DNA of 5,307 nt. Origin: a virus (Duplodnaviria; Heunggongvirae; Uroviricota; Caudoviricetes). A program made the position numbers and the translations under genes. Shown one piece after another: positions 1,981 through 4,818 of this stretch; the stretch's first letter is position 1; the number at the start of each line of letters is the position of its first letter. The notes beneath the pieces are model-generated. The model saw only the letters and a program-made list of their open reading frames with translations. It made no database searches and was not told the origin of the DNA. The DNA is taken from IMG/VR virus record IMGVR_UViG_2778261689_000010; one strand, 5' to 3'.

Positions 1981-2360
1981 TGTTGCCCCCACAAACAGAC
2001 TTCACGCTCAATCTCACGACGAGTCATCAGGCCTTTCCATTGCTTACCGCCAGCGTATGTCCAGCGACGCAGCTGATCACATGCGACTTTGATATACGGG
2101 TTAATTTGTCTGGCGACAGTGGCAAGGTCTTTATTCAAGAGTGCTTTGCATTCTGCTTTGGTATACGTTTTACCGAGCATGATGTCTTTTCCGGTGTGTC
2201 CGTGACATACAGTCCATACACCAACAATATCTTTGTATGGTATGTAGCTGACACCTTCCAGACCATCGTTACCACTTGGGCCAGTGATTAACACTGATGC
2301 TATAGCAATTGCTCCGCCACCAATAGCAGCAGCAACGGCTTTTCGTAATGATGGAGGCAT
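1977..2360 (-). CDS. rrrD: SAR endolysin (phage 21 R / RrrD family, T4-lysozyme fold), 127 aa; internally shortened and probably defective
   Basis: ATG at 2360-2358 overlaps the holin stop (TAATG). N-terminal signal-anchor-release segment [20 protein letters not shown]. Catalytic triad at E35, D44, T50. C-terminus ...[28 protein letters not shown]. Stop TGA at 1979-1977 overlaps the Rz GTG. The conserved central block of the lysozyme fold is absent between ...NPYIKV and ACDQLRRW. Confidence 0.85.
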
Positions 2361-2575
2361 TATTCACCTCTCGCAGCCTTGCGCTTATCTTCTTTAATCT
2401 TGAAATAAAGGTTTGTCAGGTACGTCAGCAGGCCAAATACCAGGCTACCCAGCACACCTATTGCTGCCCACTGTGAGGGAGTGACTTTATCTAGCAGCTG
2501 TAAAAACCAGTACCCGGCACTACCTGCTGAGGTGCCATAGGCGACACCCGTTGTTAACTTATCCATGGATTTCAT
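2360..2575 (-). CDS. essD: Class II pinholin S (phage 21 S21-type), 71 aa, with dual-start motif (Met1 antiholin / Met4 holin)
   Basis: ATG at 2575-2573 with GAGGTG Shine-Dalgarno upstream. Second in-frame ATG at codon 4 (2566-2564), giving the MKSM dual start. Two TMDs and a charged C-terminal tail [13 protein letters not shown]. Stop TAA at 2362-2360. Sequence matches phage 21 S / K-12 EssD from memory. Confidence 0.9.
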
Positions 2576-2685
2576 AACCCCACCTCGCAGACAAAGCGGG
2601 TGTAAATTGAGGGAATACTACGAAACGTAACAGACTCGGAGTCAGTGAATAACTCAGGTATTGGGTTATCAGCTAATATCGAGAC

Positions 2686-2720
2686 TCAAAAAATGGAAAA
2701 ACCCGCTCGACGGCGGGTTT
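2686..2720 (-). terminator. Candidate intrinsic terminator on the minus strand (possible tR' of the late operon), 124 nt upstream of the holin start
   Basis: Minus-strand reading: AAACCCGC-cgtcga-GCGGGTTT followed by TTCCATTTTTT. The GC-rich core stem is only 5-6 bp, so strength is uncertain. No comparable T-tract on the plus strand. Confidence 0.45.
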
Positions 2721-2725
2721 AAGCT

Positions 2726-3147
2726 GTGTGACGAAGTAACCACTCTTAACAGCATAACCAATTTTTTACGTACGTAAACCACTAAATGATATTTGAGAGA
2801 ATGCTACCGAGTATTGAAAACACCACTACAAATACATAAGCAAATCTCAACAAATAACCAAAAAATAATTTCCAGTGTTATTTTTAGCCGGTTTAAATTG
2901 AACCTTCAAATTATAGAGCACTTATAAATAACAGCCGTTAATATAAATTGGCTAATAGATTTATTTTTATTCAGCCAAGAGCCATGAATAGGATTCGATA
3001 GAAAAAAGTTCAGATAAAAATAGAGATCTACTTCACAAATCAAACGAGAAACCAAAACTTACATCTTGAAATAATCACATTGATTAGATGAATATTTATC
3101 GCGCAGTGACATCATTTTTTAATAATAGTTCAAAAAAAGGGCTCACG
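2726..3147. promoter_or_regulatory. AT-rich divergent control region between holin (minus) and porin (plus); must contain the porin promoter and may contain the Q-dependent late promoter pR'
   Basis: About 420 bp of strongly AT-rich non-coding DNA with many -10-like hexamers, for example a perfect TATAAT on the minus strand (revcomp of 2910-2915) and TTGAAA at 3066-3071 on the plus strand. No -35/-10 pair with good spacing could be fixed by eye. Confidence 0.4.
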
Positions 3148-4245
3148 ATGAAAAAATTAACAGTGGCAATTTCTGCTGTAGCTGCATCAGTACTAATGGC
3201 GATGTCTGCTCAGGCAGCTGAAATTTATAATAAAGACAGTAACAAGCTGGATCTGTACGGGAAAGTTAATGCTAAGCACTACTTCTCCTCTAATGATGCA
3301 GATGATGGTGATACTACTTATGCCCGTCTTGGCTTCAAAGGTGAAACCCAAATCAACGATCAACTGACTGGTTTCGGTCAGTGGGAATATGAATTCAAAG
3401 GCAACCGCGCTGAATCTCAAGGTTCCTCCAAAGATAAAACCCGTCTTGCCTTCGCTGGCCTGAAATTCGGTGACTACGGCTCCATCGATTACGGCCGTAA
3501 CTACGGTGTAGCATACGACATCGGTGCGTGGACTGACGTCCTGCCAGAATTCGGTGGTGACACTTGGACTCAAACCGACGTGTTCATGACTCAACGTGCA
3601 ACTGGTGTTGCAACCTATCGTAACAACGACTTCTTTGGTCTGGTTGATGGTCTGAACTTTGCTGCTCAGTACCAAGGCAAAAACGATCGTAGCGATTTCG
3701 ATAACTACACTGAAGGTAACGGTGATGGCTTCGGTTTCTCTGCTACCTATGAATACGAAGGATTCGGTATCGGTGCAACTTATGCGAAATCTGATCGTAC
3801 CGACACTCAAGTTAATGCAGGGAAAGTTCTTCCTGAAGTATTTGCTTCCGGTAAAAATGCAGAAGTTTGGGCCGCAGGTCTGAAATATGACGCTAACAAC
3901 ATTTACCTGGCCACTACCTATTCTGAAACCCAGAATATGACTGTATTTGCTGATCACTTCGTTGCTAATAAAGCCCAAAACTTCGAAGCTGTTGCACAAT
4001 ATCAGTTCGATTTCGGTCTGCGTCCGTCCGTTGCTTACCTGCAATCTAAAGGTAAGGATCTTGGAGTATGGGGCGATCAGGACTTAGTCAAATATGTTGA
4101 TGTAGGTGCAACCTATTACTTCAACAAAAATATGTCTACTTTCGTTGATTACAAAATCAACCTGCTTGACAAAAATGACTTCACTAAAGCACTCGGTGTA
4201 AGCACTGATGACATCGTTGCTGTAGGTCTGGTTTACCAGTTCTAA
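3148..4245 (+). CDS. nmpC: General diffusion porin of the OmpC/OmpF family, prophage-encoded (NmpC / Lc / OmpD-like), 365 aa precursor
   Basis: ATG at 3148 with AAAAGG Shine-Dalgarno region. Signal peptide [23 protein letters not shown], with cleavage before AEIYNKD. Porin hallmark L3-loop motif PEFGGD. Alternating beta-strand pattern and C-terminal ...VYQF with terminal Phe. Uninterrupted reading frame to TAA at 4243-4245. The ORF-track start at 3088 is an unsupported in-frame extension. Confidence 0.93.
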
Positions 4246-4261
4246 TCTGATTACGAAAAAG

Positions 4262-4295
4262 ATATGTTGCGGGAGGCGTTGCCTCCCCAACATAT
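4262..4295. other. Long imperfect stem-loop (about 14 bp with one bulge, 5-nt loop) just 3' of the porin stop; possible minus-strand intrinsic terminator
   Basis: ATATGTTG(C)GGGAGG-cgttg-CCTCCCCAACATAT. On the minus strand the hairpin is followed by CTTTTT (revcomp of 4256-4261). On the plus strand it is followed by AAGTGGC, with no U-tract. Confidence 0.35.
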
Positions 4296-4383
4296 AAGTG
4301 GCTCCCTCAAGCCACTTCCTTTAGAAGCACAACCTTGCTTCTAACTATATAAACCTTCTGTTATATATTACCCTTTATTTTTG

Positions 4384-4410
4384 GGGGCGTCTCAACGCCC
4401 CATTTTTAAT
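4384..4410 (+). terminator. Rho-independent terminator on the plus strand (porin transcript)
   Basis: GGGGCGT-ctca-ACGCCCC: 7-bp GC-rich stem (4384-4390 / 4395-4401) followed by ATTTTTAATAATTTTT. The minus-strand reading has an A-rich tail, so it is unidirectional. Confidence 0.7.
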
Positions 4411-4434
4411 AATTTTTAGTAAACAATTGGCATA

Positions 4435-4818
4435 TTAATTAGAGTTATTAACAACGATATCCATCTCTAACCGGATATCTAATGCCATTAACATCCCTTC
4501 AATTATGCCCTCAGCCTTCTGTAACCTTTTCCCGATATAACCATCAGAGCAGCAATGCTTACCTGCCAGTGACATGAATGTCATACCGACTACATAATAA
4601 TCTACTAATAAATCGTGCAAATCGCTGTTGTTCTTTTTCAGACGGGCCATGCACCCGCAAATGATCATCGCGTCATCGTCACAACATTGCGGGCGAGATT
4701 TTACTTTTGAAGTAATTAATCCCTTAAAACCGGCGGCAATGGACGACCAGGTCACATCTTCATGATTATTAGCCGCCCACGCTCCCCAACGCTCAAGAAC
4801 CATCTGAATATCACGCAT
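4435..4818 (-). CDS. quuD: Late-gene antiterminator Q (phage 21/82-type, QuuD-like), 127 aa
   Basis: ATG at 4818-4816 preceded by GGAG Shine-Dalgarno (GGAGTAAGTTGATG). The ORF-track start at 4833 is a TTG with no Shine-Dalgarno. Cys-rich putative zinc-binding motifs ([19 protein letters not shown]). Stop TAA at 4437-4435. Gene order rusA-ylcG-Q is typical of this prophage family. Confidence 0.85.

Follow-up and report, generated by a model that had tools for sequence, protein, structure and literature searches.

A probable Q-dependent late-gene control cassette upstream of the holin gene in a DLP12-type prophage

The minus-strand segment 2779-2688 of the DNA analyzed here (a stretch of 5,307 nucleotides, hereafter the window) is very probably the Q-dependent late-gene control cassette of a lambdoid prophage of the DLP12/PA-2 type. 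The window corresponds to the late region of DLP12 (qsr'), a prophage of E. coli, and its nmpC porin gene is intact; E. coli chromosomes and the part of phage 434B that derives from DLP12 match it at 100% identity. The late-gene switch of DLP12 is an already known system of a very well-studied E. coli prophage. In the mechanism that we propose, a weak constitutive sigma-70 promoter (TTTACG/TATGCT), hereafter abbreviated as pR', would initiate at A2744, and without Q the RNA would stop about 49-57 nt further on, at the terminator in 2720-2688, so that the holin, endolysin and spanin genes would remain silent. The Q protein encoded in the window, QuuD, is expected to load on polymerase at pR', given its homology to Q21 and Q933W, probably through both a palindrome (-31 to -24) and the conserved initially transcribed segment; polymerase would then be terminator-resistant and proceed into essD and the remaining late genes.

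The holin gene essD (2360-2575, minus strand; ATG at 2575), encoding a class II holin/antiholin of the phage 21 type (Pfam PF04971, E = 2e-35; annotated in 434B and MG1655), is the first late gene, and the porin ATG lies at 3148. The gap between them (2576-3147) had been described as unusually long and AT-rich. Its length of 572 bp and its GC content of 34.4%, compared with 42.6% in the window as a whole and 43-52% in the genes on either side, bear this out, but the AT-richness is not uniform: only the porin-proximal part, 2780-3147, is truly AT-rich (29.3% GC), whereas the holin-proximal part with the hairpin and the promoter, 2576-2779, has 43-44% GC. The lc porin region of PA-2 (GenBank J02580) shows 94% identity across the entire 572-bp gap. 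Between the terminator and the holin gene runs an untranslated leader (2576-2687, minus strand), in which our scan found no further terminator-like site on the same strand and which shares no homology with the 933W StxS region; ribosome-binding sites for two holin starts are situated at about 2577-2586, according to the RBS features of the 434B record. An Rfam search of the whole window returned no covariance-model match at E <= 1.

Most of the holin-proximal cassette can be recognized by homology. Positions 2779-2697 align with 933W L009 1166-1247 (77% over 83 bp), which the 1999 GenBank record of 933W presents as pR', qut and rho-independent terminator, directly after Q. The -35 hexamer TTTACG (2773-2778, minus strand) falls in this alignment on the -35 end of what 933W labels the 'pR' putative late promoter' (L009 1167-1194), and the -10 hexamer TATGCT (2751-2756, minus strand), separated from it by a 16-bp spacer, is homologous to TATCAT in 933W; the pattern nAnnnT is retained at the -10 position in nearly all of 69 variants. 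The pR' promoter is one of only three relaxed sigma-70 candidates on the minus strand of the gap, and is missing from a standard promoter scan because only 8 of its 12 consensus positions match; it is a weak promoter.

Its start is nonetheless visible in vivo. Cappable-seq of K-12 places a transcription start site (TSS) at U00096.2 576,452 (+ strand), equivalent to NC_000913.3 577,229 and to the minus-strand A at 2744 of the window, 7 nt past the -10 hexamer. For placing the Cappable-seq starts on the window we take the offset from U00096.2 to U00096.3 to be +777, a conversion corroborated by the finding that both converted starts fall exactly 7 nt beyond a -10-like hexamer. The 2744 start is present in uninduced K-12 cells, with a score of 1.7, and a constitutive promoter that is active without Q thus lies upstream of the late genes. 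A complete lack of minus-strand starts within 2726-3147 would have spoken against late-gene control in the gap; there are two such starts, at 2744 and at 3115.

Downstream of the start, from +3 to +18, the transcript contains a segment with a small inverted repeat, GTGGTTACTTCGTCAC (2727-2742, minus strand), that is kept in 8 of 8 aligned phages, porin-less ones included, and part of whose equivalent in 933W is labeled 'qut'. This segment may be a pause or Q-loading element; its invariance across the variants from viral contigs is not independent evidence, since the same motif served as search pattern. A sigma-dependent pause close to the promoter is presumed; no pause element could be assigned, as no convincing -10-like hexamer is conserved across variants within +1 to +25 (TACTTC/TACATT), and the genome-wide dataset of sigma-70 pausing (Sun et al. 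2021) has no entry for the pR' locus.

The transcript then meets the hairpin that had been noticed on the minus strand, and the distance of 124 nt given for it is exact when counted from the end of the stem (2699) to the holin ATG (2575). The hairpin, 2720-2699, reads AAACCCGC-cgtcga-GCGGGTTT and is followed by TTCCATTTTTT (to 2688), the whole forming a tR'-like intrinsic terminator (2688-2720, minus strand) with one U5 run at 2701-2697 and a second run, U6, at 2693-2688. It ranks second among the terminator-like sites in a scan of the window, which has eight such sites compared with 3.8 +/- 2.1 in shuffled sequences, a count that is unremarkable by itself. Folding of the region, as the preliminary description had advised, gives -12 kcal/mol (z = -3.0), with just 1 of 200 shuffles equally stable, and the element containing the hairpin recurs, conserved, in 363 phage records and in over 120 viral contigs. 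Moreover, in K-12, which has the same sequence, a published RNA 3' end at MG1655 577,277 corresponds to 2696, directly after the U5 run; RNAtag-seq/TRS data report it as a premature 3' end in the 'essD 5' UTR' (adjusted p 0-0.003, three libraries), 2696 being the dominant position in a range of 2698-2690. Despite the modest count across the window, the local fold, the conservation and the 3' end in vivo together set this hairpin above chance. An intrinsic terminator is therefore present between pR' and the first late gene, and most of 63 leader variants have a hairpin with a T-run at about +42 to +66, some of them with stems unrelated in sequence.

Several observations qualify the strength of this terminator. 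Variants of the PA-2 type carry a mismatch in the stem (GCTGG) that weakens the fold to -6.7 kcal/mol, and the 3' end at 2696 could stem largely from the stronger TSS at 3115 instead of pR'. The efficiency of the hairpin is uncertain because in the Stx phages of strain Sakai transcription passes the homologous hairpin, at least in part, and ends at a second terminator, at +258. The 3'-end supplement of Adams et al. (2021) has no entry for the locus upstream of essD. We also considered the hairpin as a terminator of the + strand and rejected this, since it is followed by only three T in that orientation and no gene of the + strand ends at the site.

The antiterminator expected to overcome this termination is encoded upstream on the same strand by quuD (4435-4818, minus strand), a late antiterminator Q of the Q21/Q933W family (Pfam PF06530, E = 3.5e-53). 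QuuD is 78% identical to Q933W and 29% identical to Q21 (E = 4e-11), and its sequence matches the Q21 structures 6jnx and 6p18. Q proteins of this family load on promoter-near paused sigma-70 complexes, and a phage Q-type antiterminator is stated to govern the DLP12 lysis operon (PMC7918800, citing Rueggeberg 2013). The expectation that pR' and tR' lie inside the holin-porin gap is upheld by the homology of the block to 933W, by the K-12 start at 2744 and 3' end at 2696 and by the fact that, wherever a Q was detected in related contigs, the block is accompanied by one of the same family upstream, and the data support a Q that acts at a distance, across a porin gene of opposite strand. The distance had been put at about 1.9 kb; the intervening porin is as described, and the measured values are 1,656 bp from the Q stop (4435) to the -35 hexamer (at 2778) and 2,074 bp from the Q start to the TSS. 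Hence pR' does not immediately follow Q, a separation that is a positional variant and no different mechanism.

As a candidate Q-binding element we propose the palindrome ACGTACGT (2775-2768) with the adjoining A6 tract (2767-2762), which together occupy about -31 to -18 (2762-2775, minus strand), in agreement with the position of the Q-binding element (QBE) of phage 21. Across 10 Q clusters, the palindrome overlapping the -35 hexamer and spacer tracks the lineage of Q, while the downstream leader is nearly invariant. Shared inheritance could yield the same pattern.

The pairing of the block with Q was then compared across phages and viral contigs. The order Q-porin-block-holin is shared by 36 sequenced phages. 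Among 120 viral contigs containing the block, selected with the initially transcribed motif as search pattern, 96 have a detectable Q of the Q21/933W family, and in every one of these (96/96) it lies upstream on the same strand; the remaining 24 mostly have little upstream DNA. Q and block are 21-100 bp apart in 24 of the 96 contigs and 630-2,480 bp apart in the other 72, with cargo between them that is mostly on the opposite strand. The comparison indicates that Q and its target site need not adjoin.

In DLP12 the intervening DNA can be delimited at both ends. Homology to porin-less relatives ends at 2779/2780, and DNA homology to the 933W Q gene ends at 4486. The left part (2780-3147, 29% GC) is the AT-rich region upstream of the porin, found only in porin-carrying phages; it presumably holds the nmpC promoter, and a putative CRP site is located at 3020-3040 when the PA-2 annotation is mapped onto the window. 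The intact porin gene nmpC follows (3148-4245, + strand, opposite to the late operon; Pfam PF00267, E = 5e-157, and annotations), and the right part (4246-4485) comprises the nmpC 3' UTR (ipeX region) and the replaced 3' end of Q, with a spacer limited to porin-carrying phages. The scan places a + strand terminator at 4384-4407 in this 3' UTR, and K-12 data contain ipeX-associated 3' ends. The gene order would have originated from a 933W-type arrangement, in which the -35 hexamer overlaps the Q stop, by the presence here of an insert of about 1.7 kb (2780 to about 4485) that carries a porin gene on the opposite strand along with an upstream region and a terminator belonging to it; Q would consequently act in trans over the 1.66 kb that separate its stop codon from the promoter.

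The left part of the insert also contains a strong promoter reading in the late direction (3115-3127, minus strand), with a -10 hexamer TATTAT at 3127-3122 and a TSS at A3115 (Cappable-seq U00096.2 576,081). Its score is 90, compared with 1.7 for pR', and its transcript opens with AUG. Being located within the insert, this promoter is missing from porin-less relatives. By eye only, a GAACT-N16-TCACT sequence, weaker than the RpoE pattern used in the scan reported below, can be seen near 3131-3105.

The 3115 start is the basis of an alternative interpretation, according to which it is the Q-responsive promoter (possibly the RpoE-linked 'essDp'), the hairpin is an attenuator in a 540-nt essD 5' UTR and the 2744 promoter is a weak relic. 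The difference between the Cappable-seq scores of the two starts agrees with this interpretation, as does a '-121 to +650' reporter, which would end within essD when counted from about 3115 and deep in rrrD when counted from 2744. The essD promoter was reportedly described by Rueggeberg in 2015 as RpoE-dependent, a description that may mean either the 2744 or the 3115 start. Cited literature ties both Q and RpoE to the essD promoter. However, the 3115 promoter belongs to the insert and is missing from all porin-less relatives with the same Q family and block, nothing near 3115 resembles the lineage-specific palindrome or the conserved leader, and the family of QuuD acts on paused sigma-70 complexes near the promoter. 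An RpoE scan of the gap for GGAACTT-N15-17-TCTGA/TCAAA (at least 5/7 and at least 4/5 matches) found no good motif. We thus regard 3115 as unlikely to be the promoter to which Q responds.

It is more improbable still that pR' lies right after Q, within 4434-4246, and that Q-modified polymerase runs antisense through nmpC to the holin, the essD hairpin being incidental. This would restore the canonical lambdoid gene order, and a hairpin on the minus strand (4290-4264), with ATATCTTTTT behind it, could pass for the terminator. Yet the scan detects no promoter-like site on the minus strand of 4246-4434, the K-12 Cappable-seq lists no late-strand TSS from the quuD stop to the nmpC stop, and the spacer is without homology to any annotated pR', and on these grounds a promoter next to Q was rejected. 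In addition, the spacer occurs only with the porin, as part of its 3' UTR/ipeX, and the conserved block lies at varying distances behind Q in the 96 contigs with a detected Q. In Stx2a_1447 the equivalent gap, from the Q stop to the convergent neighbor gene, measures just 21 bp and therefore leaves no space for a Q-adjacent promoter.

There is hardly any chance that 2724-2744 is instead a CRP site and the region porin regulatory DNA, as in the 1986 PA-2 record, with a hairpin insulating the porin from the lysis genes: the CRP-binding sites of J02580 do map to 2724-2744 and 3020-3040 and the first includes a TGTGA half-site, but on direct reading its second half-site is poor with respect to the CRP consensus, and 2724-2744 coincides with +1 to +21 of the mapped transcript and is kept in hundreds of porin-less phages, always downstream of the Q gene.

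Three proposals may be combined, tentatively and with somewhat less than even confidence in their conjunction; they exceed what our literature search turned up. One is that Q proteins of the 933W/DLP12 branch may recognize a short palindrome on the -35/spacer region of pR', unlike the direct repeats of Q21; the palindromes ACGTACGT, ACGATCGT, GCGTACGC, GCGGTCCGC, GGAATTCC and others are each found with one Q lineage. Another proposes that the junction between Q stop and pR' is a recurrent hot-spot of cargo insertion, with Q routinely acting in trans over 0.6-2.5 kb; most of the cargo found there is encoded on the opposite strand, with porins, the Kiwa defence system, a PDC-S20 KAP NTPase and an HNH nuclease as examples. 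Finally, the DLP12 cargo is proposed to bring a strong outward promoter (TSS 3115), against which the terminator would double as an insulator that prevents expression of the lysis genes.

The cassette would govern whether DLP12-type prophages make holin, endolysin and spanins, and biofilm and vesicle phenotypes of E. coli K-12 have been connected with the lysis genes of DLP12. Locating the Q-responsive promoter at 2778-2744, apart from the stronger, cargo-borne start at 3115, shows which promoter to mutate, and the distinction between the two starts may help to interpret earlier publications on the 'essD promoter'. The viability of phage 434B, which has the whole DLP12 segment and an IS5 within nmpC, lends indirect support to Q-dependent read-through. 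The lineage-specific candidate Q-binding sites could be tested for the Q933W family, which is of medical relevance and controls Shiga toxin.

Among known systems, phage 21 had been suggested for alignment with 2576-3147, but it turned out to share the layout without DNA similarity in the control region; 933W, H-19B and Sakai Sp5 are the informative comparators; the Q of phage 82 has been reported as a separate family. Phage 21 resembles DLP12 in having a Q of PF06530 and homologous downstream lysis genes (88-93% DNA from the holin ATG on). The layout of its late control region (pR'21, QBE, SDPE, tR') corresponds as well: the Q site falls between -35 and -10, where the candidate element of DLP12 has a matching position, and the terminator ends about 50 nt past the start. 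It differs in that its Q is only 29% identical, its Q site is a direct repeat (ATTGAGCA/AATGAGCA) whereas the DLP12 candidate is a palindrome, pR'21 comes directly after Q, and tR' is separated from S by two tRNA genes. The pR'-qut-tR' region of lambda (6S RNA) has the logic proposed here for DLP12, with a constitutive promoter, an early stop and Q-dependent read-through into S, R and Rz, but its Q belongs to an unrelated family (PF03589) and adjoins pR', and its leader is 194 nt long. PA-2 (J02580) has the same locus and the same porin-holin arrangement, with a 16-bp insertion in the holin leader and the stem mismatch in the terminator, and its record annotates CRP sites only, neither late promoter nor terminator.

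The closest likeness is to the region from pR' and qut to the first terminator in the Stx phages 933W, H-19B and Sakai Sp5 and Sp15, which there forms the 5' end of the StxS locus. These phages have in common with DLP12 the TTTACG -35 hexamer, the 16-bp spacer, a TATnnT -10 hexamer, the start nucleotide, a near-identical +1 to +21, a GC hairpin with U-tract at about +26 to +48 and a Q that is 78% identical. In lysogens of the Sakai Stx phages, dRNA-seq places the PR' start near Q, 258 nt upstream of the 3' end found by Term-seq, and the Term-seq-defined tR' is the second terminator, at +258; the A homologous to 2744 fits this PR' start, since it gives exactly the published 258-nt transcript. 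The Sakai homologue of the DLP12 hairpin is thus the first of two terminators and is at least partly read through, whereas DLP12 has one. In 933W the 258-nt RNA ending at the second terminator is processed to the 74-nt sRNA StxS; no such PR'-tR' RNA with a 3' 74-nt sRNA is expected in DLP12, where the homology stops at 2697 and no second terminator precedes essD. The palindromes differ at their center (ACGATCGT in 933W, ACGTACGT in DLP12), and the 933W -35 hexamer overlaps the Q stop whereas the DLP12 Q lies 1.66 kb off across the porin cassette. The downstream cargo differs as well: tRNAs and stx in 933W, and directly the holin gene in DLP12.

The window corresponds to the late region of DLP12 (qsr'), a cryptic lambdoid prophage of E. 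coli, in reverse orientation and with nmpC intact; several E. coli chromosomes match it with 100% identity. The minus strand carries rusA, ylcG, the Q antiterminator gene quuD (4435-4818), the holin gene essD (2360-2575), a lysozyme gene and the spanin genes rzpD/rzoD; the nmpC porin gene (3148-4245), borD and ybcV lie on the plus strand. The lysozyme gene (1977-2360) has 127 codons, versus 165 for rrrD of K-12, and shows a 114-bp in-frame deletion with its junction near 2085/2086, between 9-bp direct repeats (ATATCAAAG), by which 38 residues of the catalytic domain are lost; this variant of DLP12 probably has an inactive endolysin.

The preliminary description placed the late promoter pR' and the terminator tR' in the holin-porin gap (2576-3147), with Q acting from a distance past the opposite-strand porin gene, a proposal that is now supported by homology to phage 933W, by mapped transcript ends and by association with Q. 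QuuD belongs to Pfam family PF06530, the Q21/Q933W family, and is 78% identical to Q of the Shiga-toxin phage 933W and 29% identical to Q21. When the minus-strand hairpin of the gap and its upstream flank were used as query, 363 phage records matched, and in 933W-type phages the match sits at the very end of the Q gene, a stretch which the 933W GenBank record (1999) labels 'pR' putative late promoter' (TTTACG-16 bp-TATCAT), 'qut' and 'possible rho-independent terminator'. The equivalent block of DLP12 (2779-2697, comprising pR', leader and hairpin) aligns base for base with that of 933W: the -35 element TTTACG (2778-2773, minus strand), the -10 element TATGCT (2756-2751, minus strand) and, downstream of the latter, a conserved GTTAAGAGTGGTTAC segment followed by the hairpin.

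In pairwise BLAST of the 933W Q-to-stx locus against the window, the shared segments are only Q (4820-4486) and the block. Between them lie 88 bp in 933W and 1,706 bp in the window, so 2780 to ~4485 is an insert; it holds nmpC together with the AT-rich stretch upstream of it and its 3' UTR. The spacer that separates nmpC from Q is confined to porin-carrying phages. From the alignments, this porin cassette appears to have replaced the 3' end (last codons) of a 933W-like ancestral Q: the DNA homology with 933W Q ends at 4486, and the 933W record annotates a Q933W that is 30 residues longer than QuuD. (Of note, TTTACGTACGTAA at 2778-2766 is similar to the stop-codon region of 933W Q, TTTACGATCGTAA.) The nmpC 3' UTR itself (4246-4434, the ipeX region) contains a hairpin at 4264-4290, followed on the minus strand by ATATCTTTTT, and a plus-strand terminator at 4384-4407; K-12 3'-end data have ends downstream of both, each labelled ipeX.

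The gap had been described as unusually long and AT-rich; it does measure 572 bp with 34.4% GC, compared with 42.6% for the window, but its AT-richness is confined to 2780-3147 (29.3% GC), the 204 bp on the holin side having 43-44% GC. The minus-strand hairpin (2720-2699) reads AAACCCGC-cgtcga-GCGGGTTT and then TTCCATTTTTT, lies 124 nt ahead of the holin ATG as reported earlier (the distance being counted from the end of the stem), folds at -12 kcal/mol (z = -3.0) and ranks second among the terminator-like sites of our scan; the window has no match to any Rfam model. At about +42 to +66 most leader variants, including divergent ones with unrelated stems, carry a GC hairpin with a T-run behind it, and this retention where the stem sequence is unrelated argues that selection acts on termination itself. 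PA-2 (L002) and at least 16 viral contigs have GCTGG for GCGGG in the 3' arm of the stem (equivalent of window 2704), with a weaker fold of about -6.7 kcal/mol; the holin leader of PA-2 also has a 16-bp insertion at window 2621/2622.

The K-12 sequence of DLP12 is identical here, and U00096.2 coordinates were converted with an offset to the current record that we take to be 777 bp, by which 576,452 becomes 577,229. In the K-12 Cappable-seq data of Ettwiller et al., a plus-strand start is tabulated at U00096.2 576,452, the converted position of which is window 2744. Among the significant premature 3' ends of the TRS study (Nat Commun 2023, Supplementary Data 3) is one in the 'essD 5' UTR', dominant at 577,277 and quoted with the sequence AGAGUGGUUACUUCGUCACACAGCUUAAACCCGCCGUCGAGCGGGUUUUUCC, which corresponds to window 2696, the first base past the U5 run. 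Sy et al. mapped by dRNA-seq the PR' start of two Sakai Stx phages, with an RNA 3' end 258 nt downstream; in the Sakai sequence, exactly 258 nt extend from the A seven bases after TATCAT, the homologue of window 2744, to the last U of a second terminator.

Two minus-strand starts are thus on record between 2726 and 3147, so existing data answer the refuting condition of the preliminary description, the absence of any such start there. pR' is weak, with 8/12 consensus positions and a Cappable-seq score of 1.7, versus 90 for the start at 3115, which lies inside the porin cassette seven bases past a TATTAT -10 element (3127-3122). RNA from 3115 would also meet the hairpin, so pR' need not be the only source of the 3' end at 2696. 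Its far greater strength would favour 3115, not 2744, as the Q-responsive promoter, a reading we consider very improbable because the 3115 promoter is cargo-borne and missing from porin-less relatives that have the same Q family and block. The 3115 start diverges from nmpC, 33 bp from its ATG, and its RNA, which has AUG at its 5' end, could encode a leaderless ORF of 18 codons. Earlier work on DLP12 may have described this start as 'essDp'. In that work Q_DLP12 reportedly raises transcription of the lysis genes, and RpoE is reportedly involved. A reporter fragment given as '-121 to +650' fits numbering from ~3115 better than from 2744. Further late-strand starts in the K-12 Cappable-seq data (converted coordinates) are at 4591 in quuD (score 9), at 4103 and 3743 antisense to nmpC, and at 2289 and 2225 inside the lysozyme gene. 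One 'CRP site' of the PA-2 record (1986) maps to 2724-2744, where the late leader has its positions +1 to +21; phages without porins conserve this segment too, so its reading as a CRP site is unlikely.

Returning to pR' at 2744, a pattern scan for the conserved leader retrieved at least 120 viral contigs. Among the matches listed, a Q of the Q21/Q933W family was detected in 96 of 120, each time upstream on the same strand; in most of the remaining 24 the block has little DNA ahead of it. The distance from Q to the block in the 96 contigs listed is 21-100 bp in 24 and 630-2,480 bp in 72, the inserts lying on the opposite strand save for two types (6 contigs) among these matches. In Stx2a_1447 the Q stop lies just 21 bp from a convergent neighbour, so pR' cannot adjoin Q there. 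Cargo at the Q-pR' junction, among the matches listed (L011-L130), includes porins (~34 contigs), Kiwa KwaA+KwaB (L020), a PDC-S20 KAP NTPase (L029), an HNH/PDC-M68A-like protein (L057), NA37 proteins, an alpha/beta hydrolase and a lipoprotein; the junction looks like a cargo and defence hot-spot.

Over 69 variants the leader is nearly unchanged at positions outside the search pattern, and an 8-11 bp palindrome, which overlaps the -35 element and spacer and adjoins an A or T tract (2762-2775 in DLP12), differs between Q lineages while remaining constant within them. It reads ACGTACGT in the DLP12 Q lineage, ACGATCGT in that of 933W, GCGTACGC in the Stx2a_1447 type, GCGGTCCGC, GGAATTCC and TTCGTTACGAA each in two related clusters, and TGTTATAACA in one cluster. 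Because its position matches that of the Q-binding element of phage 21, we consider it a candidate Q-binding element of the Q933W branch; co-inheritance of Q and site could also explain the pattern. The palindrome differs in symmetry from the sites of Q21, which binds direct repeats. Specialist interest, if any, would lie in these palindromes and in the cargo hot-spot.

The feature is otherwise an element of a known type, in a prophage that is among the best studied: its homologue was annotated in 1999, public datasets already contain the ends of its transcript, and control of the DLP12 lysis operon by Q has been published. Phage 21, proposed earlier as comparator, shares the layout of the control region but not its sequence, and its lysis genes are 88-93% identical to those 3' of the DLP12 cassette. 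No sigma-dependent pause element could be assigned from the leader variants and the sigma-70 pausing dataset. In the Sakai phages the homologous hairpin is passed, at least partly, on to the second terminator at +258 that defines the sRNA StxS; our scan and the 933W comparison found neither a second terminator nor a StxS homologue in DLP12, the cassette of which falls outside the StxS family. The adjacency of Q and pR', a descriptive trait of the canonical cassette, is absent in DLP12, and their separation is a positional variant common to most relatives sampled. The DLP12 cassette is a sequence homologue of that of 933W/H-19B and would work in the manner of the textbook Q/pR'/tR' switch.
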